This document shows positions 20,559 through 64,000 of a DNA stretch of 64,000 bases, piece after piece; position 1 is the first letter of the stretch; each line of letters starts with the position of its first letter. The stretch comes from an uncultured virus (IMG/VR IMGVR_UViG_3300008113_000087) (Duplodnaviria > Heunggongvirae > Uroviricota > Caudoviricetes): IMG/VR virus record IMGVR_UViG_3300008113_000087; one strand, 5' to 3'. Position numbers and translations under genes: made by a program. Under the pieces are notes generated by a model, which worked only from the letters and a program-made list of their open reading frames with translations, ran no database searches and was not told the DNA's origin.

Positions 20559-23500
20559 TTATGCTTGTGACTCAGACCAAGAAAGTTTTCCTGATACAAT
20601 AAATGGCGAAGCACCAGTAATAGTTGTAGTATTTGTAGGCTGACACAATAAGGTTAACAAATCTGGACCAGAAGGGAAAATACCATCACCGCCCAAAATA
20701 GAGTTACCTAAGTCAACCAATCCATTTAGTTCGAAGGAAGATGTTGTACCACCACTTACTTTACCCACGTATAGAGTAACACCACCAGCAACAGAGTCGC
20801 CAGTATTGTGGTCAATAAATTGTGACAACGAAGGAGTTCCCACACCTGTAAATACAAGGTTAGAAGGTTGACCATTCAACACTAGGAACAAGTCAATTTC
20901 TTTCGATGAAGTGATAGAAACAGAATCAAGAATAACCTGCATTCTATTAATAATTTCGCGTTCACCTAAGAATCCAACTAAAGACGAATCAACAGATGGG
21001 GCTAGTCGAATCGATATAATTGGTTGTGGTCTTGTCAAGTCAGTTGCAGACAACTCGCCGAAGGTAGCAACAATTCCTGAAGCTACGTCGAGATATGTTC
21101 CAACATCTGGAACAACGGCAGTGGCTGGATAGTTTGTGTAAATCTTCGATGTAGCGCCAAGCACCTTAACCTGTGTAATGTAGGTAGAAGTAGGTAGCAC
21201 ACCAGAAGCGTCGCGGATCAACTGACCCTGAATAACTTTACCAGCATCAGCAGCACTTACACCAAGAGTATACACATATACACGTTTACCACGTAATGTA
21301 ATTTGCTCGAAGACCGATACCGCATTTGTTGTAACAGTTCCTGTTACTCCGTTGGCGAATACGTATGGCTTAGAGATAGCAGAGAATTTATATGCTCCGT
21401 CATCAGAGAACAAACCATCCATAATAACGGAAGTACCGAAGTGGAATAGTGTAGGTGAAGATGTAGGATCATCACCATTGTCGATCTCATAACGTCCAGG
21501 TAAGTTACCTGAGCGGAAGTATGATTCGTTCAATTTGTTGTTGTGGACAAATTCATGGAAGTAGAACACGTGTCCATAACGATCTTTAAATCCGAAACGA
21601 ATTTTACCAGCACCATACCATGAATAGTCAGCGTAACACATCTGAATCTTATGTGGATTAAAGATATATCCTGATGGTCCTAAACCATCAGCCTGATCTA
21701 TGTTCCACTCAGTTCTTGGTATTCTAACGTCAACCATCTTGGTGATTTTAACTTGCGTTGAAGATGCACCACGATATGCTGGTTGAATAATTAAACGACT
21801 ATCAGATTGGATCGAAACAACTTTATACGAAGAACCACGAATAGAGATGTAATCGCCTGTTTCTATTTGTCCTTGGAAACTTGTATTAGTTCCCTCAATA
21901 ACTTGAGAGTTCTTAACTGCCTTAATTACACCAGAGAGCTGTAATGTTGAAGAACGGCGAACAACATAAATTTCTTGTCCATCATATTCAAAGAAGAATC
22001 CGTTCTGATCATCAAACATACCAGCACGAATATATGAATCGCGCCACTCATTTCTGTAGTATTCTGGGAATCCCGAAGCAATCGATTGATCAATCGTACC
22101 ACCAGATGTTACTTTAAAGGTAAACGGATCAACAACTGTAGTAACAAGGAAGGTTCCATTATAGAAGTTAGTTCCTGTTGTTGTTACCGCATCTTGAACT
22201 GTGATACTATCATTAACCACAAGATTGTGTGGTTCTTGTGTAGTCGCAGTAATTAAGTTGTTTGATGCAGTGTAAATCAACTTAGCCAGTGTTTTAGCTG
22301 GAGAGAAGTTAATCGCGAAAGAGTTTTGAATACCTTTACCAGATTGGTAACGGAAGTACTTACGAGATTGACGAACGATCTTACTATTCGGAGAAGTACC
22401 CGCAGTAATATCAACACCACCATCGAAAGACTTGTGTAAGTTATATCCATCAGGACGTAGGTTTACTGTTGTCTTCAAGAAGTATTTTGAAGACGCAGTA
22501 GTAGCCTGAACTGTTTCTAGAATAGACAAAGATGTATCAGTAAACACTAGATCAACGCTAAATTTACGCATACGACCACCAACAAACATATAGAGGTTAT
22601 CGCCCTTCTTAAAGTCTGTCAAGAATTTAGTTGATGTTCCAGTAATAATACTCTTATTTACTGTTCCTGCCACTGTACCAACACCTGCAAGACCTTTAAC
22701 AATGTTAGCAGATCTAAAGATGTGAGTTCCAGTTGGAGCATTAATTTGAACATAGTTACCGTCAATCGCATCTTGCACTGAAGTTGCTAGACGGAAAGTC
22801 TTATCAGTAATCGGAATTACGTATCTTGCTGATGCATCAATTATAGCAGTGTTACCATTCGCATCATACTCAATCTGCTCACCCAAGATTAGATTGTGGT
22901 CAGCTGTCGAAGAGGTAGTAATAATATCGTTAGCTGTATCGACGCTTGCCGATGTAACGCTGTATGATCTTTTTACAACTTGGAATGGCGCTGAAACTGA
23001 GAACGATTTACCACCATCAGCTGCAGGAACGTCAACAATTGGATATGCTCCATCATATGCGCCAACTTGATTTACCAAGGTTATTGTTTGTTGCCCCACA
23101 CCCTGTGTTGTTAAGCGGATATCTTCTGAAGATGCGACAACAGTAAATCGTAGTTCCCACCAGTTAGTCATACCTGCAGGGGCTGCGTTAACATCAGATG
23201 TCGGGTCGACGTTTACGCGAATACCCTTAAACCCACCATCGGTTCTTAACAGTGAAGAAACGTCTTTAGATGTCCAGTTTGTTGCTGTCTGGAAAGCAGA
23301 AGTAAATGCCTTCGGTGCCACGTTACCAATATTAAACGTGCTATTTACTGTAGTTCCATCAGCGTTGTAAAACTTTAACACAACGAATTCTGTGGCATTT
23401 CTAAAGTCGCCACGATATTCAACTTTAGTAATAGAGGCAACAGAAGGATCTAAACCAAGTGGAGTTTGGAAGTTTACATTAGATGTATTACCAAACGCTG

Positions 23501-28950: not shown

Positions 28951-29168
28951 TATGGTTTACCTAATAAAGTTTTTAGCATTGATTTGATATCATTAATATC
29001 GTTCTTCATGTTATTTATCTCTTCTGTCATGGTGGCTTTTTCGCTTTGTTCCATTAAAAGTTTAGCTCTATACAGCTTGTAACTTTCGTAAGAATCAAGA
29101 TTAGTGTTAACTACACCACCTGTGTTCAAGTCTTTCTTAAGATCAGGAAAATTCTCAACTTTATGCAT
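28950..29168 (-). CDS. Conserved small coiled-coil protein
   Basis: KVE..PDL.KD..TG.V.NT; EINNMKNDINDIKSML. Confidence 0.7.
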   Translation of the reverse strand: MHKVENFPDLKKDLNTGGVVNTNLDSYESYKLYRAKLLMEQSEKATMTEEINNMKNDINDIKSMLKTLLGKP

Positions 29169-32100
29169 TATGAATAAGCAACCACTCTTAAGTTTTTAAG
29201 TTTCGGAACATACACAGGATGGTTCGATTTTAACACCAACTTCACGATAATATTTTTAAACAGAGCAATGTTTTCAATTGTTATCGTTCTTTCGCTGAAT
29301 ACATCACGTGCATCTGATGTTGATTTAGAGAACCCTGTGCTTTCGTATTGAACACTATTTAGTTCAACAGGATTAGACCATGTTTTATACAACACATTCA
29401 AGGTAGTTCCTTCAGGTAAGTTTGCGTCAAACACAATTTTGAAAGAATCTGCAGGAGAAGATAATGATAACGCTCTAGTAACATAATTTGCTGCATTGCT
29501 ACAACCTACTGCTGCATTATCTGATAGGAATTTATCTAATACACTAATTGCGAATGTCGAACCTTGTGAATTAGTTGCAATAGTTCCTGTTGCATTAAAT
29601 TGACCAGACAAAGTAACCAATACCTTATCGCCCTCAGCATCGCCAGAATCAACTGTATCAGATGAAACTACAACACTCTTAACATGGTATTTTCCTGTTG
29701 AAGTGCCGACAGGTCCAGTACCATTTAGATCGATGCTGGCATTTTCTATTTGAATAAATTTTCCAGGTGTAATAGTTGATAGTAAATTATCTGCAGCGTC
29801 ATCATCAGTTAATATTGTACATGTTGTTGATGTAGCGTTTGCGAATGTTAGTGAAGATGTTATTGTATTGTTCAATAAAATTCGCTTGTCAATATCACTT
29901 ACGTTGATATCAAATTCTTGCACATCATTAACCAAATTCTTTACAACATATGTTGTAATTTTTTGCATGTCAATTATCGGCGATACATTCTCATTGGTAG
30001 ATGATAGTTCTGCTTGTAATCTTAGTGAAGGACGAATAGCACCTGTCACCACGTTAACAAATTGGTTTTCTAAAGATTTTACAACTTTTCTTGTATCAAA
30101 AATATAGTCAGAATTAGTGACAATAGATTCAAACGAAGATGCAGTTCCTGCAGCATTTTCTGCGCTTGCTTTATATCTAAGAGTTGTCTCAGGGAATGTT
30201 AAATCTGCAGTCTTAACGTAGATTTGATCTGCGCTTAGTTGTCTACTAATCTTAATTCCTGCGCCACCATAGTTACCTTTTACCAATGTAGCTAATGTAG
30301 TTTGCACGTTTCCTGTTGCTTTTTTCGCAAGCAATAAATTCGGAGGTGTTAAATTATCTTGTGTAGTAATATTAAACACAAAGTTATTATCAGAAAGTCC
30401 ATCTGCGATTACAGTTTGTATACCATTCAATAATGTGGAAGGAATGCCTAATTCTGAATCATTCGTTCCGTAGTTACCGAGCGGTACATGACTGATGACA
30501 ACTTTATCGCCAGCAGCAAATCCATGATTTTTAGCGGAAACACGAATTTTCGCAGTACCCTTTGAAATCTCAAACGGATTTACATCTAGATTAATAGTAG
30601 TTGGTGGTACTGCTTTGAATGAAGCAGTGAGAGTAGCTGATGTATCAAACTTCGCTTGATATAATGTAAACTTCAGATCTAGTAACGGATTAATTTGGAA
30701 CTCTTGTGTATTCTGTGATAAGAATAGAGATCCCGTTAATGGTTGTGATGTTACAATGTTGTTTGTTATAATATCGCTTTGTCCTAATTCAGAAACAAAG
30801 ATTTGACATCCTGGCTCATCAGTCTTAACGACAAGAGCATATGTCTCAGCATCTTGTAAATATACGGGTGAAGCGAATTCAAATCTTGTAGCTACAGATC
30901 CATTTTCTGAAGTCTTGATTTCCTGCGGTGATTTAGTAACTTCAGTTAGTGGTACGATCTTAGATGATGGTACTCCATTATTAGTTGTTCTCAACTCAAT
31001 AGAAACTGGGCGAGCGCCTGCTTCTTGGAAATACACATCAACACCAGTAACAAAAGCGCCACCAAGTGAACTTACTGTGAATGTTTGCGCAACTGGATCA
31101 TGTCCTGTCCAATATGAATACAACACACGTGTAGATGTCGATGTTCTACGCACTGGTATTTCTTCATAAAGTCTATCTTGAACAAAACGAACATCTCTTG
31201 AATTAACAATGGTTCTTTCTTTTGCGAGTGTAGTTCCAGATGAGATATAGAAAGCAGAACCCTTCGAATCAAAGTCTGCATCGCTGTTAGAAATATTGTC
31301 GATTAGTTTAAATGTTCTTTCACCAGATTTAAATGTTGCCTCAGGAAGATTATACACCCCAACAGCAGAACCCCAAATATCAGTCTTAATAGAATCACCA
31401 ACTACTTTCATTGTTGGCAATAAGCCAACACCAGTACCATTGATTAATTCTAGGTCTACGCGATTTTTAACACCAATCTCTATATCGGTGGTTCCTTGTA
31501 AAACATCACCAGGAGCAAATCCATTTTTAATATTTACAACATGAATTTCCATATCAGAAGGATATATTATATTCGTCACAGTAGTATAAGTAGTTACTGC
31601 ACCAGCAAACGCAACAACACCAGAAGCTGTTAGACGTTTCACTTTACCACCATCACCATTGTTGTATGCTGCAATATTGTATGCACTAAATGCTGGGATA
31701 GTTGCACCACTTGGATCTGCCAATGTCAGTGTTGTTCCAGATACATTGGTTACTTTAAAGATTCTATAATTTAATTCTCTACTAGTATTAAGTGTATAAT
31801 CAACTATTGTAGAATTTCCTCTAACTTGATCAGCAAACAACGTATTTGTTGAAGCGATCACTCTAGATGGACCCAAGTTATACAGTTGAACAAAGTGTCC
31901 AGGTTTTATTTGTGTCGTTGAAGCAACAGTTAATGTGAATGAAGCTGCGCCGAGCACATTAGTTATATGCGAAATGCTAGCAATGTTTGTTGGTGTATGT
32001 GTTTCGTTTTCTACTACGTCGCCAACGCTAAATGCTGGTTGAACAATACCATTCTCTGTTCTAGCAATACTATCAGTTAAAATATTTTCCGTCAATTCTG

Positions 32101-35100
32101 CTGGATCAAAAATCATTTTATTAGCGCCAGCTGCTAAATTGACTTTAAATATGTCCGCTGGTTTAATAAATTGACTAATAGATCTACCATCAAAGAACGC
32201 ATAGAATTTAGTTTGTGCCTTCAGATTTTTTGCTGTGTAAACAATAGGTCTTGCACGCATATATGGTGCGTAAGAAATATCAACTACACGATCACCATAG
32301 TCAACTGCATTGGTTGTGCCAGTTAATGATGTTTGGATTCCTTCTCTTGAAGAGGTTCCAGTTTGTGTAGTAATTGTTTGCTCGAACCCAGTAACAGTTT
32401 GGCGTCGTTGGTTAGGATCGCCAGTTTGCCATGTTGAAGTTGCAGTAGAGATACCTGTCCAGTTAGTTTGCCACTCACCCCACTGTGTTCCAGTAACACC
32501 AAGCTGCTCAGCCATAAAGCGAATAGCATCATATCCATTATCGTCAACAACAGTTAAATCGGGTCTACGTTCAGTGTCTTTCCAAACATCGCTTTCTGGA
32601 TTTAAAATTATCTCGCCTTTGAATGCGCCAATTTTATATGGGTTAACATCAATTGTTCTTGTTGCATTTGGGTTGAAGATGAATGGTTCTTTAGTGTATG
32701 GTAAAGAAATAATGTCGCCAGTTTTTGCGTATCCTGAGTTGGCACGTTGTGCTGCAGATTCTAGATCTTCAACAATTGTTACCGCATTTGTTTCATGCAT
32801 AGGACGAAGTTCTCTATTGATAGTATCAATAGAAACTCTATAATCTTCATTTTTAACATCGCCTATTCCATGACCAGTAAATTGATCAACGATAAATCCG
32901 TTCTTAAAACGATCGATACCAGTGATTGCATCTTTAATTTGTAATTGAGCTGTTTCAGTTTCAAGAAGATTTAATGAGACATAATATTCAAGATTTGAAA
33001 TTCTTCTTTCTAGATCGCCGATATCGCGCATTGTGTAGCGACGATTGTCACGTTGATAGAATTTAATGTCGCCAACTGATTTCGTATAAGCTGGAATCAT
33101 AATAGCAGCAAGAACCATACCGTCTTTAGGATCTAGAGGTTCTTGTGGGGTCGCAGAAGGGACACCTGTTATAATATTAAAACGACCGACTGAATCTAAA
33201 ACAATCTTATCAAAACGTGGTAAGTAGTAAGCGATGTCAGTTGTCATCTCATTACCAATAACTGGTATTTCATTGAAACTTGTGTTGTTGCCACCGATAC
33301 ATGGGCGATAGTCAATAACATCGTGTAGATAAATGGTGTCTACTTTTCCATCTGCATTTTTTACTGCATAAGATGGAATGTCTTCATAGTTAAATGTAGG
33401 ATTATTGTTAATAGAGTTAGTATAAGAATCTACAGAGAAATAATCACCAGTACCACCATGATTAAAATATTTGTATACTACTCTTAATGCACCAGATGGT
33501 ACAGCTTCTCCAGGTCTTAGAACAAGCGATCCATTTGTGTAGTGCGTATCACGTTGGCCATCATCAAGCGTAAAGCGATTAGTAACATCAATACCTGTAG
33601 TAAAAGTGTTACCTGTAAAGTCGCCAGCGTTCATAATAATACTATCAACCTTTAACAAATCATTTTTTGCTAGTGGGATAATTTTATTAATAACTGTTTT
33701 TTGGCCAGTAATATATTCTGTGTTTGTTGCTAAGATTTTTTCTTTTGCGCTACCCTCTGTATTAGCCTGTGTGACTGTCGCGATTAAACGATATATCACA
33801 CCATTCGTTAAGCCAGAAATTTCCACCTTAGTGTTATTTACTGTAATTGTTACATCGGCAGGTGTTATTGCAACGACAGCATTAGTCGATGTGTTATACA
33901 ACAGATAGTTAGAAATATCTAAATCAGAAGGGAATGTTTCTAAGTTAGTGTTGAGTGTATATTCAATCTTATTGTCTGCTGCTGTTTTCGTAGTGAAAAT
34001 TCTTCTTACTTTTGTTGTTGTTTCGTTTAGCGAATATGCCGAACCATCAAATCCTAGTAATGTTTTAATAGATTCGTAACCAATTTTAAATATGAGTGCC
34101 TGAGAATCAGGTTCAAATATTTTTGCTCTAAACACAGAAACGATACCAGCAGTTTTAGCCACAGCACTATTTGCAGATAATGTTAATGCTGCGTTGTTAG
34201 TTGGGGTTGATGCCAGTGTTCCTGCTTGCACACCATCAATAAAGATAACATCATCTGCCACGAGTTCAGAAGTAAACTTAGTACCAGTTCCCGTAACTGC
34301 TGCGCTATTAGTAGCTGATGTCGCTGAACCTGTCAGTTGTTTATTGTTAGGAACAATATTACATGTAAAATTTGTTGCGCCAGATAAACCACTTACAATT
34401 GATTTTACGTGATTTTCAAAAGAATAGCCAGCATCAATTTTAATATCAAATAAACTTAATTTGAATATTGGAGTAGCGTAGTCTCCGTTGTGTAGCTGGA
34501 AAGATCTTACTTTAGCAGTACCGATTACATCAGCTGCTGATGGTGCTGCGCCACCAGATGCGTTAAGTTTTTTTACAAGATATACTGTAGAGAATGTTGA
34601 GAAGTCTGGGTAGTTGTATATACTATTTACAAGTACATAATTTCCAACAGGTGTTGCGACAGGCTGATTATTTAAAGAGAGAATATGCCCTGTTGCTGCA
34701 TCACGTGCTTTATTTAACGTGAGATATTGTCCCGACACAGATTCGATTTCGTAGCCCTGAACATATGCCTTTCCAGGATCAATCTCAACAACAAATTTAT
34801 CTTCATTACCACCACCAGCAGCTGTATAAATTCCCAGTGGGTGATTCACATCTTGTAAATGCTCAAAGGCAGAAAGTTTAAATTTATTTACTTCATAACT
34901 ACCTGATTCATCAAATGTTCTTCTGGCAAATGTTTTTTCTAGTTCGGCATAAGATGACTTAGATAAAATTTGCTGAACACGACCAGCTTTAACGCGAACA
35001 AGTTCAATAAATCTATCTTCATCAGTTGTTAATAGTTGTTTTTTCGCTAAAGAGAGTTGTATCTTATAGCGATGTGCACCAGGAGCTGCGAAGTTGTTTG

Positions 35101-35887
35101 TTCCTTGCGCATTATCGTTTAATGCATTATCGTCTTCTGGTGTAACAATTACTTCACTTACGCTGAACCCAACACGAGCAGTTGTGTCTGTACTAAATCT
35201 TCCGATGTAAAGATGGAGTTCTTCGTTTCTAACGAAAAATCCATCAATATAATAGATACCAGCTTCAACCTCAACAACATATCCATAACCCAATACATCT
35301 TTGATTGGATCATTTGTGTATGTAGTTCCAACTAAACCAGTATCACCGAATCCTCTTATGTTTACAACAAGGTCGCCTGTTTGGTTTGTTGTCAAACGAT
35401 AGTTTGTTGTAGTTTGATTGTCTACTTCATACGCAATTAATTGCTCGCCAGGAATAAATCTCTTTGTTGTATCATCATCGCCTGTACCATCAATTTTATA
35501 ATACAATGTAGCGATTTCTTTTTCATCTGCTAAAACACACGCACACTCTGAGGTATCAACTACTACAGCTTTAAGTCCAGAGGTTGTGCCAGTTATAACT
35601 TTGTCAACAAACTGTGTCAGGTATGATTTAACAGCAATACCTTGATACAAATCTTCTAGTTTAGCAAAGTGTACTTGGTTGTCTACGTTTACACCACCAG
35701 GAATGACCATTGATCCATTTTTAAATATATGGTCACCCAAACGACTTACTTGTTTTTGTAAAATTGTTTGGGCTTGCGTTAATTCTCTTGCCTGAACCGC
35801 ATATCCTGGACGAAACAACACACGAAGAAATAAATCTTCGTCTGCGTAGTCGTCGTAATATGGGTTTACGTTAAAGTTAATTGTCAT
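29168..35887 (-). CDS. Very large virion structural protein (DUF4815/VrlC-like)
   Basis: NFNVNPYYDDY, VLFRPGYAVQARELTQ, APGAHR.KI.L, RRYTMRDIG.LE.RI..LEYY, DP.AQTF; follows gp8. Confidence 0.8.
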   Translation of the reverse strand: MTINFNVNPYYDDYADEDLFLRVLFRPGYAVQARELTQAQTILQKQVSRLGDHIFKNGSMVIPGGVNVDNQVHFAKLEDLYQGIAVKSYLTQFVDKVITGTTSGLKAVVVDTSECACVLADEKEIATLYYKIDGTGDDDTTKRFIPGEQLIAYEVDNQTTTNYRLTTNQTGDLVVNIRGFGDTGLVGTTYTNDPIKDVLGYGYVVEVEAGIYYIDGFFVRNEELHLYIGRFSTDTTARVGFSVSEVIVTPEDDNALNDNAQGTNNFAAPGAHRYKIQLSLAKKQLLTTDEDRFIELVRVKAGRVQQILSKSSYAELEKTFARRTFDESGSYEVNKFKLSAFEHLQDVNHPLGIYTAAGGGNEDKFVVEIDPGKAYVQGYEIESVSGQYLTLNKARDAATGHILSLNNQPVATPVGNYVLVNSIYNYPDFSTFSTVYLVKKLNASGGAAPSAADVIGTAKVRSFQLHNGDYATPIFKLSLFDIKIDAGYSFENHVKSIVSGLSGATNFTCNIVPNNKQLTGSATSATNSAAVTGTGTKFTSELVADDVIFIDGVQAGTLASTPTNNAALTLSANSAVAKTAGIVSVFRAKIFEPDSQALIFKIGYESIKTLLGFDGSAYSLNETTTKVRRIFTTKTAADNKIEYTLNTNLETFPSDLDISNYLLYNTSTNAVVAITPADVTITVNNTKVEISGLTNGVIYRLIATVTQANTEGSAKEKILATNTEYITGQKTVINKIIPLAKNDLLKVDSIIMNAGDFTGNTFTTGIDVTNRFTLDDGQRDTHYTNGSLVLRPGEAVPSGALRVVYKYFNHGGTGDYFSVDSYTNSINNNPTFNYEDIPSYAVKNADGKVDTIYLHDVIDYRPCIGGNNTSFNEIPVIGNEMTTDIAYYLPRFDKIVLDSVGRFNIITGVPSATPQEPLDPKDGMVLAAIMIPAYTKSVGDIKFYQRDNRRYTMRDIGDLERRISNLEYYVSLNLLETETAQLQIKDAITGIDRFKNGFIVDQFTGHGIGDVKNEDYRVSIDTINRELRPMHETNAVTIVEDLESAAQRANSGYAKTGDIISLPYTKEPFIFNPNATRTIDVNPYKIGAFKGEIILNPESDVWKDTERRPDLTVVDDNGYDAIRFMAEQLGVTGTQWGEWQTNWTGISTATSTWQTGDPNQRRQTVTGFEQTITTQTGTSSREGIQTSLTGTTNAVDYGDRVVDISYAPYMRARPIVYTAKNLKAQTKFYAFFDGRSISQFIKPADIFKVNLAAGANKMIFDPAELTENILTDSIARTENGIVQPAFSVGDVVENETHTPTNIASISHITNVLGAASFTLTVASTTQIKPGHFVQLYNLGPSRVIASTNTLFADQVRGNSTIVDYTLNTSRELNYRIFKVTNVSGTTLTLADPSGATIPAFSAYNIAAYNNGDGGKVKRLTASGVVAFAGAVTTYTTVTNIIYPSDMEIHVVNIKNGFAPGDVLQGTTDIEIGVKNRVDLELINGTGVGLLPTMKVVGDSIKTDIWGSAVGVYNLPEATFKSGERTFKLIDNISNSDADFDSKGSAFYISSGTTLAKERTIVNSRDVRFVQDRLYEEIPVRRTSTSTRVLYSYWTGHDPVAQTFTVSSLGGAFVTGVDVYFQEAGARPVSIELRTTNNGVPSSKIVPLTEVTKSPQEIKTSENGSVATRFEFASPVYLQDAETYALVVKTDEPGCQIFVSELGQSDIITNNIVTSQPLTGSLFLSQNTQEFQINPLLDLKFTLYQAKFDTSATLTASFKAVPPTTINLDVNPFEISKGTAKIRVSAKNHGFAAGDKVVISHVPLGNYGTNDSELGIPSTLLNGIQTVIADGLSDNNFVFNITTQDNLTPPNLLLAKKATGNVQTTLATLVKGNYGGAGIKISRQLSADQIYVKTADLTFPETTLRYKASAENAAGTASSFESIVTNSDYIFDTRKVVKSLENQFVNVVTGAIRPSLRLQAELSSTNENVSPIIDMQKITTYVVKNLVNDVQEFDINVSDIDKRILLNNTITSSLTFANATSTTCTILTDDDAADNLLSTITPGKFIQIENASIDLNGTGPVGTSTGKYHVKSVVVSSDTVDSGDAEGDKVLVTLSGQFNATGTIATNSQGSTFAISVLDKFLSDNAAVGCSNAANYVTRALSLSSPADSFKIVFDANLPEGTTLNVLYKTWSNPVELNSVQYESTGFSKSTSDARDVFSERTITIENIALFKNIIVKLVLKSNHPVYVPKLKNLRVVAYS

Positions 35888-54694: not shown

Positions 54695-55624
54695 TTATGA
54701 TTCTTGGGCGATCTTATTAAAGTAAGCCATAACATCTTCGTCATCATCTGGCGTAGAGTTAGTAGCTACCTTTGGTGCTGGCGCTGGCTTAGATGCACCA
54801 ACTGACTTTGGTGGAACTGGTGCAACATAATCTTCATCATCAGACATCGAAGCAGCACTGCGAACAGCTGACCCACCTTCGCTTAACACATCGCTAAGGA
54901 TTCGGGATAGTTCTTCATAAGACTTAAAGTTCTTACGATCAAGGAACTCTGCCAATCGATATTGTTTACCGACTACTTCAAGAAGTTGATCTTCGTCACC
55001 AGACAATAATGGTGTAGCATCAGCGAATGTGGATTGGTCGTAGTTTGGGTAACCATCAACCTTGCGCATACGTAGTTTAAAGTCTGCGCCTTCCCACAAA
55101 TCAAAGACGTTTACTGGTTTATCTTCAGCAAAAGTAGGACGAGCTTTGTCCATAAGTTTGTCAAAGATTTTCTTGCCGAATTTAAACAAGAATACCTTGC
55201 CGTTGTTTTCTGGTTTTGCTGGGTCACTAACAATATAGATGTTAGCAACGAAACTCAACTTACGTTTTTGCTTGCGAGCAATTTCTTTGTTGGATTCAGA
55301 TCCTGAGTTCCACAACTTAGAATTGAGTTCACCAACTGGGTCATTTTCACCAAGAGTAGTAAGAGAGTTTTGAATATACCACTTTCCAGTTGGACCTTGG
55401 AATGAATGACTGAAGACTTTAACGAATGGGAGTTCGTCGCCTTGAGTATGTGGTAAGAACCGAATAACCGCAGATGCGTTACCAGCTTTATCTGGTGTTA
55501 ATTTCCAGATTCGGTCGTCATCATAGGATTTTTTTTCTCCTGCTGGACTCGCGATCTTGTCGAACTCAGATGCGATTTTAGAGAAGTCGGTGTTGCGCAT
55601 TTTGCGTAGTGTTTGAATGTCCAT
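54695..55624 (-). CDS. gp32: Single-stranded DNA-binding protein
   Basis: DDRIWKL..DKAGN.SAVIRFLP, FKFGKKIFDK, FDLWEGADFKL, acidic tail. Confidence 0.96.
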   Translation of the reverse strand: MDIQTLRKMRNTDFSKIASEFDKIASPAGEKKSYDDDRIWKLTPDKAGNASAVIRFLPHTQGDELPFVKVFSHSFQGPTGKWYIQNSLTTLGENDPVGELNSKLWNSGSESNKEIARKQKRKLSFVANIYIVSDPAKPENNGKVFLFKFGKKIFDKLMDKARPTFAEDKPVNVFDLWEGADFKLRMRKVDGYPNYDQSTFADATPLLSGDEDQLLEVVGKQYRLAEFLDRKNFKSYEELSRILSDVLSEGGSAVRSAASMSDDEDYVAPVPPKSVGASKPAPAPKVATNSTPDDDEDVMAYFNKIAQES

Positions 55625-55648: not shown

Positions 55649-55849
55649 TTAAAGTATAAATTTTTGTTTAAATGTATGTGTCTTAGAAGGTAGTGTGTCT
55701 TCATCATCTTCATCATCTAGATATCCATCATCATAGTCTTCCTCGACCCATCTATTTATAATACGCATACCTTGCTGTTTGCTCGGATGCTTCTTTCTTT
55801 GAAAATCATCATCAATGTCCCGATGATTTAACTTCCTCGTCTTAGCCAT
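55649..55849 (-). CDS. Hypothetical protein
   Basis: 66-aa basic/acidic ORF coupled to gp59. Confidence 0.6.
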   Translation of the reverse strand: MAKTRKLNHRDIDDDFQRKKHPSKQQGMRIINRWVEEDYDDGYLDDEDDEDTLPSKTHTFKQKFIL

Positions 55850-56450
55850 TTTGTAACTCTTCTAGTTCCGATTTAAAATTAGAATTGATTAAGTCGATTT
55901 TTGTGGCATCGTATTTAACGAAAGGTCCACACTTACATATTCTACGGTATTCTTGTTCCCAAAGCAAGTTTGTATTTGCTTTCCAAGAATCAAGATAACC
56001 ATAGAGTTTTTCCAAAATACACATACTCTCAATGGATATATGTCCACCCAGATAGAGTTTGAGTAATTCAGGAATCTTTGCTTCAAATAGATCAACGCTT
56101 TTCAGCTTAGATTTTTCCATATGAAGAATAATTGTATTACAGTCTGCTTGAAACACTTGAGTAATTGATTGTTTACGTTTTTGCCAAAGAGTTAGATTGC
56201 GATCCGACTCACCAAGGGAATATACTGTGGCATCATGACCATAAGCAAAGTTTGCAACATAGAACTGTATGAGATCAAAGTCTTTATCAAACCTTCTCGC
56301 AAGATTCTCAAATATTCTACGATCATTTCTAGACTCAAAAACATCACGACTTCCTTTTACATTTGGGTTAACGAACACATCAAAACTATTGGTAGTAAAG
56401 TGTAACTTTACAGCAATGTAATATTTGTATGCTTTAAATCCATCCATCAC
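55842..56450 (-). CDS. gp59: Helicase loader
   Basis: Y..Y.A.KLHFT...FD, F..RND...F..L, ISIES..IL; upstream of gp32 as in T4. Confidence 0.88.
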   Translation of the reverse strand: MMDGFKAYKYYIAVKLHFTTNSFDVFVNPNVKGSRDVFESRNDRRIFENLARRFDKDFDLIQFYVANFAYGHDATVYSLGESDRNLTLWQKRKQSITQVFQADCNTIILHMEKSKLKSVDLFEAKIPELLKLYLGGHISIESMCILEKLYGYLDSWKANTNLLWEQEYRRICKCGPFVKYDATKIDLINSNFKSELEELQNG

Positions 56451-56662
56451 ACATCAAGTTTTGCTTGTTTAGGTAAAAAATTCATTTCAATAAAGTTCGC
56501 TTCAATCTTTTGTTTGAGCGATTTGCTGACCAGAGACTTTATATCCTGTGGGTCAATATAATTTTCTTCACAGTATTTAAGAACAGCATCAAGATGCGTA
56601 CACTTTTTATCCTTCACTATCTGCTCAATGTATAACGAAAAAGAACCACTATCTTCAAACAT
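56447..56662 (-). CDS. gp33: Late transcription coactivator (start re-called at 56662)
   Basis: FSLYIE.IV.....DAVL.YCEEN.ID.....LVSKSLK.KIE......NFLPK. Confidence 0.88.
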   Translation of the reverse strand: MFEDSGSFSLYIEQIVKDKKCTHLDAVLKYCEENYIDPQDIKSLVSKSLKQKIEANFIEMNFLPKQAKLDV

Positions 56663-56945
56663 TAGTTTCAACCTTTCGGATATAGGCATCAGCTGAAACG
56701 ATTAAGCGATTCAACTCACTATATTCTTCTGACTTTTTATTATATAACTTCCACTCGGGTGTGTCAAGTTTGGAAGAATCCATTCTCTTGTTACATTTAT
56801 CCAAAAATTTGTCGAACCATGAGTCCATCTTTTGACGATCGCTAAGCAACGAATTGCGTAAACGCACTAGTGCTGGCAAATCACGATCAATTGCACACAA
56901 AGAAAACTTTTCATAATACTCAGAAACATGTAGTTCCATAATCAA
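56655..56945 (-). CDS. Hypothetical protein
   Basis: 96-aa ORF in coupled operon. Confidence 0.65.
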   Translation of the reverse strand: MIMELHVSEYYEKFSLCAIDRDLPALVRLRNSLLSDRQKMDSWFDKFLDKCNKRMDSSKLDTPEWKLYNKKSEEYSELNRLIVSADAYIRKVETNV

Positions 56946-58628: not shown

Positions 58629-59201
58629 TTATTTTAAATCTTTTACTTGATCACACAATCCAAGTTTTTGGGCTTCCTCAGCGGATAACCAAATATCTTG
58701 GGGTGGTAGTAAAGTTTCGCGTATCTTTATCTCACTCAAACCAGTGCATTTTCTGTAGTGAGCGATCATCCTTTTTGTAGTTAAATCAAATTCCTTTACC
58801 GTAGCAAAAAGTTCATGCTCTTTTCCAAACGCACCCCATGAGTATTGGTGACTCAGAACTGAAGTGTTTGGTGTTAGGACACGCATACCTTTAGTTCCTG
58901 CTGTGAAGACTAAAAGTCCTGCGCTAGATACTTGTCCCAATCCGATTGTTCTTACTGGTATCGCAGATCCACGTATAACATCTATCAGAGCAAACGCTGC
59001 TGTAAGATCTCCACCTGGACTTGTTATCAGTAAGTTTAATAATGAGGGTCTTTCCTCGGCAAAGTTTGCCTCAAAGATCCACTCTACTGCTTGTTTTGCA
59101 ACAGTTAAATTAATATCCTCCATTAGAGGGAAGAACGAATGCGACAAACTGTCGCTCGTTTTCAATTCTAGATTTAATTTTTGCATCATGTTGGTGGGCA
59201 T
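58629..59201 (-). CDS. clpP: ClpP-like serine protease (start probably 59201 behind GGAG)
   Basis: ITSPGGD...AFA..D, TIGLGQVSSAG (Ser), R...PNT....HQ (His), DIWLSAEEA.K.GL.D (Asp). Confidence 0.88.
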   Translation of the reverse strand: MPTNMMQKLNLELKTSDSLSHSFFPLMEDINLTVAKQAVEWIFEANFAEERPSLLNLLITSPGGDLTAAFALIDVIRGSAIPVRTIGLGQVSSAGLLVFTAGTKGMRVLTPNTSVLSHQYSWGAFGKEHELFATVKEFDLTTKRMIAHYRKCTGLSEIKIRETLLPPQDIWLSAEEAQKLGLCDQVKDLK

Positions 59202-59745
59202 ACTTCTCTCCATGTTTATAAAAAATGTGTGAACCAATCTTAACAGTTCTATTTAGATGATTCCACTTTGGGTTCACATAATCAGCGTGGTAAAACAGCG
59301 CACCATCTGTATTATCTTTTATGGTATGAGAGTTTACATATAGGTCTAATGCCACATTATATACTTTTTCATACACATCTTTTTGTCTATCAGAAAAAAG
59401 ACGTTCTTTATTATAAGCCATAGATCTTTCGCGATCTTGGCAATACCATGAGAATTGACATGTTCTATGGCTTCTTTCTTTCACAACAGAGCATATATTG
59501 TTTCCAAACTGCCCAGAACGAACACGATTGAGGGTTACTATACCCACTGCTCTTTGACCTTCGATTGGTTCATATGCTGCTTCGAAAAATATATTATCTG
59601 CTAAACACTCTACTTCCGCTCTAGCCTTATTGGTTAATTGATCCGCTGTTACACGAATAGGAAATAGTGAGTTGTTATTTGCCAACACTATTGTTGTTAT
59701 TGAAAATACTATCGTTGTTATTATTAGAAAAATTGTTTTGTGCAA
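59110..59745 (-). CDS. Cell wall hydrolase (SleB/Hydrolase_2 family) with N-terminal signal or TM segment
   Basis: CLA.NI.FEA..EP..GQ.AV..VTLNRV, CQFSW.C, GALFYHADYV.P.W, IGSHIFY; TTG start with AAGGAG. Confidence 0.88.
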   Translation of the reverse strand: MHKTIFLIITTIVFSITTIVLANNNSLFPIRVTADQLTNKARAEVECLADNIFFEAAYEPIEGQRAVGIVTLNRVRSGQFGNNICSVVKERSHRTCQFSWYCQDRERSMAYNKERLFSDRQKDVYEKVYNVALDLYVNSHTIKDNTDGALFYHADYVNPKWNHLNRTVKIGSHIFYKHGEKYAHQHDAKIKSRIENERQFVAFVLPSNGGY

Positions 59746-60179: not shown

Positions 60180-61670
60180 TCAATATAAAGCAAGTTTCTT
60201 TTTTATGTATTGGTTTTCAAATGGCGCAATTTTATAGACAAGATCATCAGCATGTTGCCTTGTAAATGCACTATTTCTAATGGTTTGGATATCTAGACCA
60301 CTATATGATGCAACTCCCCAAACATCCCACGAATCTAGATATGCATTTTGATTGTCGCCAGTATTTGCAGACGACCAAGCGACTGCTTTGTCTTTGTTTC
60401 CATATTCGTTTTCCCAATTAACACTATATGGATACGCACCATTATGTTTAAAATCTTCCATATCTAATTCCGCTGGGATTTCTTTATATCCATATTTAGA
60501 TAAATCCTCGCCCATGGCTGAGAGTTTGATTGCTCCATCTTGTTCAGATATTTTTTTATGTATTGTCAATGGATAAAACACCCAATGCTGGTCCATCCAA
60601 TTTTCTTTAAACCATTTTACAGTATTGTCAAGCGACTCATAAGATTCTCTAGGTAACCCTGTAATCATAGACATAGTTGATACATACAATCCAAGTTCTT
60701 TATTGAACAGCTCTCTCATTTCTAATGCTGTTTGTTTATTCTTGTCTGGGTGTAAACCCTTTCCAATCAGTTTTCCGCTTTCATGATTAAAAGTTTCTAC
60801 ACCATAGTATTGTCCCCAGATGCGCGACTCTAGCAATAATTCTCTATCCCGAATATTATTGTAAAGTAAATCTAGTCTAACGAATCCAGTGAAATTTGGT
60901 TTAAATGACAATCGTTTTACAGCTGATGAAAACTTTATTAACTTCTCTTCATTACTGTTAATAGTTTCATCTGCGATCGCGTAATTTATAACACCCCACT
61001 TATCGTAATTAGATTGGAGTTCGCGATACATGTCTTCTTCAGTTCTTGAGGTATCACCCCTTACACCAAGGATCGGATATGAACAATATTTACATTTAAA
61101 TTTACATCCTCGTTCTAACTCAATAGTCAATACATCAGATGGTAATATGAAATCTCTATCTTCATATTCTATTGAGTATGACCCACCAACTGTTTCTGGT
61201 GGATAGGCTGGATACATGTGAATCGCATTAATCAACCATCCATTTTTAAGTGGAATACCCTTTATTTTACCATTAGAGAAAGCATGATTTAGTGCTTCAA
61301 CAACAGCAAGTTCTCCGTAACCATTAATGTAATAATCAGCATCAAGATCTTTATAGTAAATGTCTTGCCCACCAAGTATAATTTTTAATTCTGGATATTT
61401 TAATCTAATAAAAGAAATTATTGATTTGTATGTTTCATATCTAGATAACCAAGTTATGGAAAATCCTATCCACTTAATTTGGTTCTGAGAAATTCTTGAG
61501 TCTATAAGTTCTACTAATAGATTACTCCTCCAAGCAGGTAAACGATCGATTACCTCAACATCAATACCCATAGTTTGTCTGAGATAGTGCGCTATTCTAT
61601 ATGCGCCAGGAGATCTTTCGAGACTTGTCTGCCAACCAAGAGATGTAAATATTAATCCGTTTGCGTTCAT
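60180..61670 (-). CDS. Radical SAM protein with N-terminal B12-binding-like domain
   Basis: ERGCKFKCKYC (CxxxCxxC), ADET.N, GVET, I.GLP.ES; N-terminal VEVID..IGFS..KIILGG. Confidence 0.82.
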   Translation of the reverse strand: MNANGLIFTSLGWQTSLERSPGAYRIAHYLRQTMGIDVEVIDRLPAWRSNLLVELIDSRISQNQIKWIGFSITWLSRYETYKSIISFIRLKYPELKIILGGQDIYYKDLDADYYINGYGELAVVEALNHAFSNGKIKGIPLKNGWLINAIHMYPAYPPETVGGSYSIEYEDRDFILPSDVLTIELERGCKFKCKYCSYPILGVRGDTSRTEEDMYRELQSNYDKWGVINYAIADETINSNEEKLIKFSSAVKRLSFKPNFTGFVRLDLLYNNIRDRELLLESRIWGQYYGVETFNHESGKLIGKGLHPDKNKQTALEMRELFNKELGLYVSTMSMITGLPRESYESLDNTVKWFKENWMDQHWVFYPLTIHKKISEQDGAIKLSAMGEDLSKYGYKEIPAELDMEDFKHNGAYPYSVNWENEYGNKDKAVAWSSANTGDNQNAYLDSWDVWGVASYSGLDIQTIRNSAFTRQHADDLVYKIAPFENQYIKKKLALY

Positions 61671-61683
61671 GCTTACCTATAAT

Positions 61684-61980
61684 AAAAGACCGACTGATTA
61701 AGTGATAAGGACAGTCGGCGAAACCTCAGCTATGCTTAGGCAGCGATAGCAAATAACTCATCGTTTGCAGTTATTGATTTTGCTTGATTTACGGTCATCG
61801 CCTACCGTGTTGCCGTCTCTACTATCTCACGCTGTCGAAACCTAGTCACCCCCATCAGAAGAATTTTATCTTTCACAAACAGAGCCAGTCTTATCTGCTG
61901 GGTGCTAAAACGCTTCTGGTGGAGGTGGGGAGAATCGAACTCCCGTCCAACATGCCTTCGCTTTGAAGGGATTACAACAA
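61684..61980 (-). ncRNA. ssrA: Circularly permuted (two-piece) tmRNA
   Basis: Acceptor piece ...GGACGGGAGTTCGATTCTCCCCACCTCCACCA ends at 61917; 63-nt intervening segment; coding piece starts GGGGGTGACTAGGTTTCGACAG at 61853; acceptor stem with G3:U pair; resume context ATAACT-GCA and tag ANDELFAIAA* at 61768-61736; outer ends approximate. Confidence 0.93.
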
Positions 61981-62691
61981 TTACTTCCAGTATTTAGAAT
62001 AATCTACATTATTCCAATGCTGTTCATTATTTCGGTATAAGAAGTTTTTAATAAGATACCATGCCATTCCAAAATATCCCATCTTCTGAAATCTTCTGCT
62101 GTCTTGACCGAAGTAATGTTTCATCAGTTTAAATTTCTTGGTGTCATACATCTTAGACAAAAAGAAATCTTCACTGGTACCATACTTCTCGGCAAAGCCA
62201 CCGAACTCTTCATATTTAGTTTTTCTGGTTAACATAAATGCACCAACAGCGAATGGGACTTTATATTGCATAATGCTGTTTACGAAATTAAATATCATGA
62301 AACCGATCTGCGCTCTTATGTCACCATCATAGCACTTTACACGCAATCCGATTAAATCCAAATTATTTTGTTCTAGTTCATTTACTGCGTCGACTATAAC
62401 AGTGTCGGAGAAAAATCTCACATCACTATCAATGAATAGAATGTATGGGGTGGTAACAAGTTTAGCTCCACTGTTTTTAGCAAACGAAACTGGACCACCA
62501 TCAATAATCTCTACATTCAGATCACCCTTCATTATTTTTATAACTTCTCGGGTATTATCCGTAGAACAATCTGCGATGATAATTCTAGTATCACCTATTG
62601 ATTGCTGGCGCAGATGCATTAACAAATGCGCGATATAGTTCTCTTCGTTTTTACAAGGAACTACAATTGTTATTTTATTACTTAATGACAT
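61981..62691 (-). CDS. Glycosyltransferase family 2
   Basis: ITIVVPCKNEE, IIAD.STD.T, AKNSGA, FIDSD (DxD), SEDF. Confidence 0.9.
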   Translation of the reverse strand: MSLSNKITIVVPCKNEENYIAHLLMHLRQQSIGDTRIIIADCSTDNTREVIKIMKGDLNVEIIDGGPVSFAKNSGAKLVTTPYILFIDSDVRFFSDTVIVDAVNELEQNNLDLIGLRVKCYDGDIRAQIGFMIFNFVNSIMQYKVPFAVGAFMLTRKTKYEEFGGFAEKYGTSEDFFLSKMYDTKKFKLMKHYFGQDSRRFQKMGYFGMAWYLIKNFLYRNNEQHWNNVDYSKYWK

Positions 62692-62809
62692 GTGTACGTT
62701 TATGTTTCAATGATTTCTTTAATGCTTTTAACCACAGTTTCTTTTCTTTTACTCTATCATGATTGACGCATGCTAGATACATCTTCTTCACTATCTCTTT
62801 CACTTTCAT
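62678..62809 (-). CDS. Small basic protein (43 aa, not in track)
   Basis: MKVKEIVKKMYLACVNHDRVKEKKLWLKALKKSLKHKRTHVIK with GGAG SD; bridges phosphoesterase and GT2. Confidence 0.55.
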   Translation of the reverse strand: MKVKEIVKKMYLACVNHDRVKEKKLWLKALKKSLKHKRTHVIK

Positions 62810-63560
62810 TGTCTGTCTCCTTTGTCCACGTTACTATTTCCCAGCGTCCATCATGGTGCTCAACAAGAGCAGTGCATGATTCAACCCAGTCTCCGTCATT
62901 CATATATGTTACACCATCAATGTCTTTAATTTCAGCATGATGAATATGACCACAAATAACTCCATCGTAACCTCGCTTCTTACAGTATGCTGCAAGATTG
63001 CGCTCGAACTGAAATATAAAGTCTACTGCTTTTTTGACTTTATGTTTAAGAAACTTGCTAAGGCTAAAGTACCCAAAACCCAAACGACGACGAACCCAAT
63101 TAAATTTATTGTTGAGGCTAAGAACAATGTCATACGCTTTATCTCCTAAGAATGCTATCCAAGGTGCTAGTCTAGTAATACCATCGAACAAGTCACCATG
63201 TGTAACTAGATATCGTTTACCATCCACACCTACATGTTCTGTTTGGTTTTTAATTTCTATCAGACCAAAAGAAAACCCATATGGTATCATCGGTCTTAAA
63301 AACTCATCGTGGTTACCTGCTACGTAGATTACTTTTGTTCCACGTTTAGCGTGACCCAGTATTCTGCGGACAACATTCGTATGACTCTGCTTCCAGCGCC
63401 ACTTGTTTTGTTGTATTTTCCAGGCATCAATAATATCACCCACTAGATATAATGTCTCACAGGTGTTGTGTTTGAGAAAGTTGTTTAACTTTTTGGCTTG
63501 ACAATCATTGGTACCAAGATGGACATCACTTATAAAAATTGTTCTGTATGTTTTGTCCAT
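62757..63560 (-). CDS. Metallophosphoesterase of the YbbF/LpxH family, PlcP-like
   Basis: ISDVHLG, GDIID, GNHD, HGD.FD, CGHIH, N.GDWVESCTALVEH. Confidence 0.88.
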   Translation of the reverse strand: MDKTYRTIFISDVHLGTNDCQAKKLNNFLKHNTCETLYLVGDIIDAWKIQQNKWRWKQSHTNVVRRILGHAKRGTKVIYVAGNHDEFLRPMIPYGFSFGLIEIKNQTEHVGVDGKRYLVTHGDLFDGITRLAPWIAFLGDKAYDIVLSLNNKFNWVRRRLGFGYFSLSKFLKHKVKKAVDFIFQFERNLAAYCKKRGYDGVICGHIHHAEIKDIDGVTYMNDGDWVESCTALVEHHDGRWEIVTWTKETDNESERDSEEDVSSMRQS

Positions 63561-63568
63561 AAGTTTAC

Positions 63569-64000
63569 CTAGTGTCCTTTAATGCTTCGGTACTGCTCTC
63601 TTACTTCAATAAACTTATTTATCCACGTATCACGTTTTTCTTTAAAAATAATTGGTTCGTGATCATCGACTGCCATAATAATAACCAAATGTCCGACAGG
63701 GATTTCTGTTCTCTCTTCGAAAGCCACAGCATATGCAGCGCACTGCATAAAGTAGTTATGAATATCGTCTCGCGACTTTACTCTCTTTGATGTTTTAAAG
63801 TCAATGACAGCAAGTTTACCTTCATACTCTGCGATACAATCAACTGTTCCAGCAACTTCTAGATGATCAGAGTAAAGTGGTGTTTCGAGTGCATGGATGT
63901 TGTTAATCTTTGACAACTCAGGTAAGATTGAATCCCACGTGTAGTGGTCAAACATGTCTGGCTTGACTGGCTCATTGTTAAGGAACGATTCGCAAAGTGA
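63569..64000 (-). CDS. PD-(D/E)XK / Cas4-like exonuclease, C-terminal part
   Basis: LE..LYS..L.VAGTVDCIAEY.G.LAVIDFKTS, YFMQ..AYA; frame continues off window. Confidence 0.85.
   Translation of the reverse strand, partial: SLCESFLNNEPVKPDMFDHYTWDSILPELSKINNIHALETPLYSDHLEVAGTVDCIAEYEGKLAVIDFKTSKRVKSRDDIHNYFMQCAAYAVAFEERTEIPVGHLVIIMAVDDHEPIIFKEKRDTWINKFIEVREQYRSIKGH

Follow-up and report, generated by a model that had tools for sequence, protein, structure and literature searches.

A predicted circularly permuted tmRNA gene of beta type in a T4-like myophage genome and its recurring association with a ClpP-like gene

The permuted tmRNA gene and its structure

The stretch of DNA analysed here, in full the window, consists of 64,000 nucleotides from an uncultured virus of the Caudoviricetes (IMG/VR record IMGVR_UViG_3300008113_000087), and its region 61684..61980 reads as a complete circularly permuted transfer-messenger RNA (tmRNA) gene in a phage genome, flanked by phage genes on the same strand. 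When the whole 64 kb was searched with ARAGORN the single RNA gene called was a permuted tmRNA with the tag ANDELFAIAA. Two Rfam models match this region above their cut-offs: RF01850 (beta_tmRNA; 158.7 bits, E 5e-49, cut-off 84) over its full length, and RF04321 (tmRNA_permuted; 151.6 bits, E 4e-30, cut-off 47) over model positions 1-213 of 213. RF01850 is the best subtype model, with overlapping matches to the alpha and cyano members of the clan scoring lower. These were the two kinds of search that an earlier reading of the window, made from the sequence only, had named as checks on its proposal of a permuted tmRNA, and both bear the proposal out.

The anatomy which the sequence-only reading had put forward is upheld as well (Table 1), and it goes well past anything that chance would produce. 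On the minus strand the T arm and the 3' strand of the acceptor stem precede the 5' half of that stem, and the two strands form seven pairs in which U61925 lies opposite the G at position 3, giving the G3:U determinant. The next helix, CAUGUUG with CAGCGUG, has seven pairs including two G-U, the coding piece encodes ANDELFAIAA and a stop codon in a frame found by both ARAGORN and the Rfam alignment, and the hairpin CCGACUG/CAGUCGG is followed by a U-run. The identity elements of the tRNA-like part are complete, comprising G3:U, the discriminator A, an encoded CCA and a T loop with UUCGA; likewise the tag frame begins at the Ala resume codon GCA, closes with UAA and specifies a degron-like C-terminus. 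The same tag is found in the viral loci L014, L326 and L328.

Table 1. Features of the tmRNA gene, followed by a promoter-like site and by the neighbouring genes in their direction of transcription (minus strand)
Feature	Position	Strand	Remarks
Acceptor (tRNA-like 3') piece, ~63 nt	61917..61979	-	Rfam alignments, RNAalifold pairs; putative 5' end
Helix P2, 5' strands	61979-61974, 61967-61966, 61954-61948	-	acceptor piece; 61954-61948 is CAUGUUG
T arm GGGAG/CUCCC, loop UUCGAUU	61944-61928	-	acceptor piece
Acceptor 3' strand CACCUCC	61927-61921	-	acceptor piece; pairs with 61853-61847
Discriminator A and encoded CCA (ACCA)	61920-61917	-	acceptor piece
Intervening sequence (IVS), 63 nt	61854..61916	-	putatively removed
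Coding (mRNA-like) piece, ~170 nt	61681..61853	-	putative RNase P start at G61853; putative 3' end
Acceptor 5' strand GGGGGUG	61853-61847	-	coding piece
GGUUUCGAC element	within 61681..61853	-	coding piece; read from sequence and Rfam alignment
Helix P2, 3' strands	61834-61828, 61817-61808	-	coding piece; 61834-61828 is CAGCGUG
Hairpin CGGU/ACCG	61807-61792	-	coding piece
Tag frame GCA...GCC UAA (ANDELFAIAA, stop); conserved UAA motif AAUAACU just before	61736..61768	-	ARAGORN, Rfam
3' hairpin, 7 pairs, conserved 15-nt loop, then UCUUUUAUU (61689-61681)	61681..61718	-	likely terminator; 61718-61712 pairs with 61696-61690
Weak promoter-like site TTGGAA-17-AATACT, 8/12	61989..62017	-	predicted; inside end of glycosyltransferase gene
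PDDEXK nuclease	63569-63955	-	Pfam
Metallophosphoesterase	62757-63560	-	Pfam
Family-2 glycosyltransferase	61981-62691	-	directly upstream of tmRNA
Radical-SAM/B12-binding protein, 496 aa	60180-61670	-	~11 nt after tmRNA U-run; no PHROG match
92-aa open reading frame (ORF)	between radical-SAM gene and cell-wall hydrolase	-	
Cell-wall hydrolase	59110-59745	-	Pfam
ClpP-like serine peptidase	58629-59237	-	PF00574, 99.5 bits
Five small ORFs	between ClpP-like gene and gp33	-	
gp33 late-transcription coactivator	56447-56689	-	
gp59	55842-56450	-	
gp32	54695-55624	-	

The structure of this RNA is under selection in the viral family to which the window belongs. An alignment of the window with 51 distinct viral sequences (alignment A1, 52 rows) was folded by RNAalifold without prior structure, which predicted 49 pairs, 32 of them with at least one sequence changed on both sides, and recovered the distal and proximal parts of helix P2, the T arm, the acceptor stem with a continuation into the IVS, a stop-codon helix and the 3' hairpin. 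Paired cells make up 96.7% over the 52 sequences against 85.4% when shuffled, double-change cells number 270 against 68 and the covariation score is 0.363 against 0.153, with none of 500 shuffles scoring as high; as a control, sliding the partners by 1-3 columns leaves a paired share of only 40-52%. The acceptor stem is invariant in the family because the search pattern fixed it and so adds nothing to the covariation count. Helix P2, which links the two pieces (helices 1-3), has 15 pairs, 12 double-changed and 95-100% paired, and the 3' hairpin, which matches the first 3' hairpin of the beta_tmRNA model and covaries in the family, has double changes at 7/7 pairs. The tmRNA structure is therefore kept by compensatory changes across related viral sequences. 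In the window the predicted stop-codon helix (61740-37 with 61728-25) is weak, and an alternative 5-bp helix, GCUAU/AUAGC (61750-46 with 61733-29), suits it better; a pairing of GAGG (61727-61724) with the loop of the 3' hairpin showed no consistent register by eye on alignment A1.

The IVS is excised in two-piece tmRNAs, and in this family its two ends pair with one another (61920, 61918-17, 61915-13 and 61912-08 with 61854, 61856-57, 61859-61 and 61862-66; RNAalifold columns 68-81 with 130-143), and helix 5 has 18 pairs, 8 of them double-changed. The ends read GAAGCGUUUU and AAAAUUCUUC in the window, whose own stem has one mismatch, C opposite U (61912 with 61862), and family covariation is strong at columns 77-81 with 130-134. 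ACCA itself pairs in part with the UGAU just before G1. In the predicted fold the stem at the IVS ends prolongs the acceptor stem, and because the ends pair and ACCA is partly paired with UGAU the precursor would be a single long hairpin from which the IVS loop is to be cut out, which gives a concrete precursor model for processing.

The middle of the IVS is hypervariable within the family. The IVS of the window (alignment A1, columns 72-142) is 96% identical to those of L061 and L050, whose P2, pre-tag hairpin and tag differ, and one IVS type is common to L008, L015, L020, L021, L023, L029, L041 and L042. Since the same IVS types sit on different tmRNA backbones, their recurrence points to recombination inside the gene.

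Phage context and published relatives

On its gene content the window is assigned to a T4-like myophage, as it encodes a major head protein, portal, sheath, large terminase, baseplate wedge and hub proteins, a gp32-type single-stranded DNA-binding protein, a gp21-type prohead protease, gp15, a neck protein, gp25 and gp53, and its G+C content stays at 36-41% along the whole window. For the capsid protein, identity reaches 63% with the OM43 phage Melnitz and 62% with freshwater and marine cyanomyophages. No record near-identical to window positions 40000-64000 was found among 50,697 phage records, and G001, the nearest viral record (45 kb, 28% complete), contains nothing that matches the tmRNA region. 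The tmRNA gene sits among T4-type early genes on the same strand, namely homologues of the PDDEXK nuclease, gp33, gp59 and gp32. One viral relative, L326, has the gene arrangement of the window at 78-81% DNA identity; the radical-SAM gene, present in L326 and absent between tmRNA and clpP in L328, appears to be an indel between relatives.

The closest parallel in a named phage is Melnitz, which is also a T4-like (Kyanoviridae-type) myophage with a permuted tmRNA and in which ssrA, as in the window, lies downstream of a PDDEXK nuclease gene and upstream of the same-strand gp33-gp59-gp32 cluster, the order being PDDEXK nuclease, two small genes, ssrA, gp33, gp59, thyX and gp32. The Melnitz ssrA is, however, of the alpha_tmRNA type (106.7 bits) whereas that of the window is beta_tmRNA, and it has a glutamine riboswitch (RF01739, 52.8 bits) just downstream, whilst no glutamine riboswitch or other additional Rfam family was found in window positions 61200-62400 at E up to 1. 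The gap between ssrA and gp33 is ~0.3 kb in Melnitz and ~5 kb in the window, where it holds the radical-SAM, cell-wall hydrolase and ClpP-like genes. As the same neighbourhood can hold an alpha-type gene with the riboswitch or a beta-type gene without it, ssrA behaves as an exchangeable cassette.

Two-piece tmRNAs are already known from phages. Buchholz et al. (2022; PMC9004378) report a two-piece ssrA in Melnitz, and likewise in the pelagimyophages HTVC008M and Mosig, give ARAGORN two-piece calls for 53 of 133 unique tmRNAs from 18,146 phage genomes, find the permuted form in 17 of 47 Melnitz-like contigs and list it in a table for Caulobacter, Synechococcus, Pelagibacter, Stenotrophomonas, Bordetella and Citrobacter phages, SM1 and others. 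The tmRNA database paper from which RF04321 comes (PMC11915505) gives 79 unique bacteriophage tmRNAs. With so large a permuted share in PMC9004378, the statement of the sequence-only reading that most described phage tmRNAs are one-piece is true only in a weak sense, and the rarity it supposed for the permuted form does not stand, as Melnitz and about 50 other phage isolates are published in that source and the form is common in viral contigs.

The latter point was seen when IMG/VR was scanned with a pattern made of the window's T-loop/acceptor sequence. This gave 78 contigs with an IVS of 40-70 nt and at least 120 further contigs with an IVS of 15-40 nt, at least 198 in total of the same acceptor type. 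Of the 78 viral loci, 71 have a permuted tmRNA according to ARAGORN, with tags that are mostly ANDxxFALAA-like, and in the set with the short IVS the tags are very heterogeneous among the 62 of 124 loci that were extracted by pattern. Taken alone, the window therefore adds a further member to a published class of phage two-piece tmRNAs that is common in aquatic viral contigs; what is noteworthy is the beta-type cassette at the position of the Melnitz ssrA, the covarying stem at the IVS ends and the recurring link with a ClpP-like gene, which is taken up below.

Subtype and lineage

Beta_tmRNA is the best model for the window and for all 11 viral loci tested, with scores of 100-166 bits. A bacterial scan with the same pattern (one genome per species, gap 15-45) gave at least 120 loci which, among the matches listed, are mostly from Rhodocyclaceae, Azonexaceae, Zoogloeaceae and Sterolibacteriaceae; 121 loci (one of which is the Melnitz capsid locus) were scanned with ARAGORN, which calls a tmRNA gene, nearly always permuted, in 103. 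The tags among the matches listed include ANDERFALAA (40), ANDEQFAIAA (20), ANDERFAVAA (11) and ANDERFAIAA (10), and the bacterial genes nearest to the window, again among those listed, are of the ANDEQFAIAA type with ~76% identity over 121 + 64 nt. Sharkady and Williams are said to have described the betaproteobacterial two-piece tmRNA in 2004. The Rhodocyclales-type RNA (RF01850) resembles that of the window in gene order, acceptor stem and a similar 3' hairpin loop, and the tags are nearly alike, ANDEQFAIAA in Dechloromonas/Azonexus-type bacteria and ANDELFAIAA in the window. The IVS is 63 nt long in the window and 19-45 nt in the bacterial sample, a split between viral and bacterial lengths that was imposed by the search patterns.

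A quick maximum likelihood tree of 156 rows was made with the IVS removed and left unrooted, 16 loci with odd tags or a failed cut having been omitted. The window groups with 61 viral sequences (Shimodaira-Hasegawa-like approximate likelihood ratio test, SH-aLRT, 94) and its sister is L001 (SH-aLRT 97, 82% identity), whilst 87 Rhodocyclales-type bacterial genes form a separate clade (SH-aLRT 97) that does not include it. Five Herbaspirillum/Duganella genes, the phage SM1 and one provirus are intermediate between the viral and bacterial groups. The viral branches of this unrooted tree are much longer than the bacterial ones, and because viral beta-type tmRNAs are far more diverse than the shallow Rhodocyclales clade it could be asked whether phages were the reservoir from which the Rhodocyclales two-piece lineage came; on an unrooted tree with sampling shaped by the search patterns we regard this as unlikely.

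Beta-type tmRNAs above the RF01850 cut-off were also found in cultured phages belonging to groups other than that of the window, namely SM1 (111.2 bits, tag ANDTSFDVRLAA), BUCT-ZZ01 (94.5 bits, tag ANDETFSMALAA) and the Ralstonia jumbo phage RsoM2USA (92 bits, tag ANDSRYAVAA). These tags are unlike that of the window, and the likeness in DNA extends over only 66 nt, in the tRNA-like part (83%); the same 66 nt are matched in the SM1 relatives PaMx31, UF_RH6, FBPa45 and PA_L9. The Pseudomonas host of SM1 and the Synechococcus elongatus host of BUCT-ZZ01 presumably have one-piece tmRNAs. Because these phages nonetheless carry the beta type, the subtype is no guide to the host and a host assignment for the window from its tmRNA type was rejected, which also weakens arguments for host transitions that are built on ssrA type.

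Several of these genes have features of their own. The SM1 gene (KU245542.1, L201 1224-1615, minus strand) has an IVS of ~110 nt, adjoins a tRNA-Arg(tct) and is unannotated, and SM1 stands under both linear and permuted in the table of PMC9004378. BUCT-ZZ01 (ON615601.1; L405 1410-1840, minus strand) is a lake cyanomyophage, and ~1 kb from its tmRNA ARAGORN calls a tRNA with anticodon CTA ('tRNA-Pyl'; L405 2875-2950, minus strand) which would be amber-suppressor-like. Among the bacteria, permuted genes in Oxalobacteraceae (Duganella and Herbaspirillum: L117, L171, L189, L191 and L192) have tags ending in AYGT or AVGT and not in LAA, and three Cupriavidus loci (L096, L180, L186) carry permuted tmRNA genes outside the Rhodocyclales. 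The T-loop/acceptor/GGGGGTG pattern also occurs in contigs of metagenome-assembled genomes from Acidimicrobiia, Actinomycetota and Acetothermia (L080, L122, L129, L132, L144, L151, L154, L155 and L198) in which ARAGORN calls no permuted tmRNA, and these matches may be divergent forms or chance.

Expression, proposed function and the ClpP-like gene

The stop codon of the glycosyltransferase gene lies 2 nt before P2. A scan for consensus promoters called no convincing promoter for the tmRNA gene, the best site in the window being the weak one listed in Table 1; since that site is weak and lies within the end of the glycosyltransferase gene, read-through from upstream would be as likely as transcription from an own promoter. 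In the family members with a strong promoter match, that match mostly stops 8-9 nt short of P2, which is where the window has its weak site. At the other end, a terminator scan with a loop limit of 8 called none at the 3' hairpin, which has a loop of 15 nt, and 21 of the 52 rows, the window included, have six or more T within the 12 nt that follow the hairpin. The hairpin is likely to be a terminator and, because its loop, which resembles that of the bacterial beta model, is conserved across the family, it is probably more than that.

Relatives of the gene are also seen in sequencing runs. The stretch occurs in DNA runs labelled fungus, riverine, freshwater, marine and plain metagenome, and four freshwater metatranscriptome runs contain short, deep contigs with at least 90% identity to 61762-61854 and 61912-61981, the word depth reaching 3162 on 61781-61817. 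The loose ends of these contigs run into the P2 of other family members, and they are therefore taken to come from relatives and not from the gene of the window. A 271-nt contig in X15 begins in the upstream gene, reaches the tRNA-like part and shows only the presence of a close relative, and X20 has two joints across the IVS with unknown letters between them, which are most likely other IVS types. As these runs are assembled contigs they say nothing on RNA ends, strand or the exact gene of the window, and the lack of coverage on the IVS, the tag and the flanking genes is no sign of processing or of silence; they are a hint that tmRNAs of the family are present in RNA libraries.

The reading we favour, with a probability of roughly 0.8, is that the locus is an intact phage gene for a two-piece tmRNA of beta type, which is processed, charged and acts in ribosome rescue. 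The gene would be transcribed, probably by read-through from the glycosyltransferase gene or from its weak own promoter, and the precursor would fold with the stem at the IVS ends prolonging the acceptor stem. Host tRNA-processing enzymes would then act on it, with an RNase P cut at G61853 and trimming of the 3' end to the CCA at 61917, to leave an acceptor piece of ~63 nt and a coding piece of ~170 nt joined by helix P2 and the acceptor stem. Host alanyl-tRNA synthetase would charge this RNA via G3:U, host SmpB and EF-Tu would deliver it to ribosomes that have stalled on broken mRNAs, and with the addition of ANDELFAIAA to the nascent chain the ribosome would be freed, so that the phage may benefit from ribosomes kept free whilst mRNA is degraded during infection. 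Keiler, Shapiro and Williams are said to have reported in 2000 that in Caulobacter a permuted gene gives one precursor which is cut into two base-paired tagging RNAs; that RNA is of the alpha-type lineage and is the product of a cellular gene, whereas the phage RNA here is known from sequence. The standard interpretation, by which the phage has a ribosome-rescue RNA of its own, fits the anatomy and is most likely; the added suggestion of the sequence-only reading that this RNA takes the place of depleted host tmRNA is purely conjectural.

Some observations weigh against the favoured reading. The terminal 9-bp hairpin of the beta_tmRNA model is unmatched in the window (6 + 6 mismatches), and a pseudoknot upstream of the tag showed no consistent register by eye on alignment A1. 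The window is a distant member of beta_tmRNA, scoring 158.7 bits against 269-305 bits for the Rhodocyclales-type bacterial genes L134 and L100; the Herbaspirillum gene L192 scores 114.6 bits. Its best promoter-like match, 8/12, falls short of the strong promoter found in 22 of 52 family members, where at least 10 of 12 positions match TTGACA-17-TATAAT within 55 nt upstream. Finally, the SmpB family had no match among the 34 ORFs of the 64-kb window scanned with Pfam, and on this ground the phage RNA would be reliant on host SmpB.

The ClpP-like gene lies 2.4 kb downstream of the tmRNA on the same strand. Aligned to solved ClpP chains its product matches 6x60_A best (E 7.7e-18), and GQVSSAG, SHQYS and QDIW align with the ClpP segments holding the Ser, His and Asp which we take to be the catalytic residues. 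The true start of the ORF is uncertain; read from the TTG at 59237, it shares 128 nt (59110-59237) with the end of the cell-wall hydrolase ORF. A role as head protease was ruled out as the T4 gp21-type protease is encoded in the head module at 3881-4534. A functional tie between the two genes may be supposed from their linkage, and it is possible, as an extension of ribosome rescue that does not exclude it, that the phage ClpP-like peptidase docks on a host unfoldase (ClpX or ClpA) and destroys the phage-tagged chains, with amino acids and ribosomes recycled during takeover. We put this forward tentatively. If true, chains from the broken mRNAs that the phage causes would be fed to a protease with a phage-made catalytic ring, and such a unit would have been assembled or kept in unrelated phages, the aquatic T4-like myophages and RsoM2USA.

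In favour of such a unit are the retention of Ser, His and Asp in a protein distinct from the head protease and the frequency with which the two genes are found together. An IMG/VR search gave 318 stretches encoding relatives of the ClpP-like protein, of which the best 80, 70-100% identical, were examined (L323-L402); 47 of these loci include 4.5 kb or more of DNA upstream of clpP, and all but one of them (46) have a permuted tmRNA on the same strand, 0.9-2.5 kb before clpP. Most of these loci are, however, close relatives, so synteny or shared descent alone can explain the linkage. Amongst cultured phages 22 of 50,697 records have a ClpP match at E up to 1e-10, and the three best all carry a permuted tmRNA above the Rfam cut-off: BUCT-ZZ01 (ClpP 50% identical to that of the window), the Sinorhizobium jumbo phage Phosso (56%) and RsoM2USA (32%). 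In RsoM2USA the tmRNA is ~0.9 kb, or two genes, upstream of clpP on the same strand, and ClpP is the only protein of this region of the window with a match there; against a functional unit, the two genes are 41 kb apart in BUCT-ZZ01 and 234 kb apart in Phosso. Atu_ph07 and Bacillus KLEB27-3, which have more ordinary ClpP genes, gave no tmRNA above cut-off.

Among 50 viral records of 35 kb or more that bear a tmRNA, 30 match PF00574, as a raw share. Amongst the records with a long IVS clpP is 1.3-3.3 kb downstream on the same strand in 15 of 24, 7 kb upstream in one and lacking in 8, one of which is a complete genome; in those with a short IVS it is adjacent in only 1 of 26. Melnitz has ssrA but no ClpP homologue at the matching place, and no phage ClpX, other unfoldase or adaptor was found among the window ORFs scanned, both of which tell against the proposal. 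In the open-access literature no description of a tmRNA-ClpP module was found; the passages of PMC12484599 that concern phage G give it a tmRNA, ClpP and ClpX, unlinked and not discussed together there. The repeated linkage, which includes an unrelated jumbo phage, makes a phage-run circuit of tagging and proteolysis testable.

In RsoM2USA neither gene is annotated as such. The tmRNA (MG752970.1 ~331650-331960; L411 3150-3461, minus strand) is unannotated and scores 96.7 bits with RF04321, its tag is miscalled by ARAGORN and was read from the Rfam alignment, and the ClpP-like gene 465 (L411 1583-2248, minus strand) is annotated as hypothetical.

It would seem quite improbable that the phage RNA acts mainly as a competitor or decoy that displaces or blocks host tmRNA, for example to blunt a host response dependent on trans-translation. 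PMC11915505 does cite a tag-less form from mycobacteriophage DS6A that inhibits endogenous tmRNA in E. coli, and the beta-type permuted genes of SM1 and BUCT-ZZ01 suggest that the phage form need not match that of the host. In the window, by contrast, the tag frame, resume-codon context and stop are intact and a canonical degron-like tag is conserved in the family, which would be needless in a pure decoy. That the gene is a functionless passenger, a piece of host ssrA left by inexact excision, a remnant of attP or a chimeric assembly with bacterial DNA, is highly unlikely even though prophages often integrate in ssrA and carry its fragments (as stated in PMC9004378), because nothing is missing from either half, the tag or the 3' hairpin, compensatory change keeps the structure in a large viral family, the gene holds the same position among phage genes in many contigs, the tree sets it with viral sequences and apart from the bacterial clade, and no integrase was seen among the window ORFs scanned.

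Elsewhere in the window, the tail/baseplate region contains two giant ORFs on the minus strand, one of 2239 aa at 29168-35887 that matches phrog_358 (function unknown) and one of 1836 aa at 20559-26069 that matches a virion structural protein.

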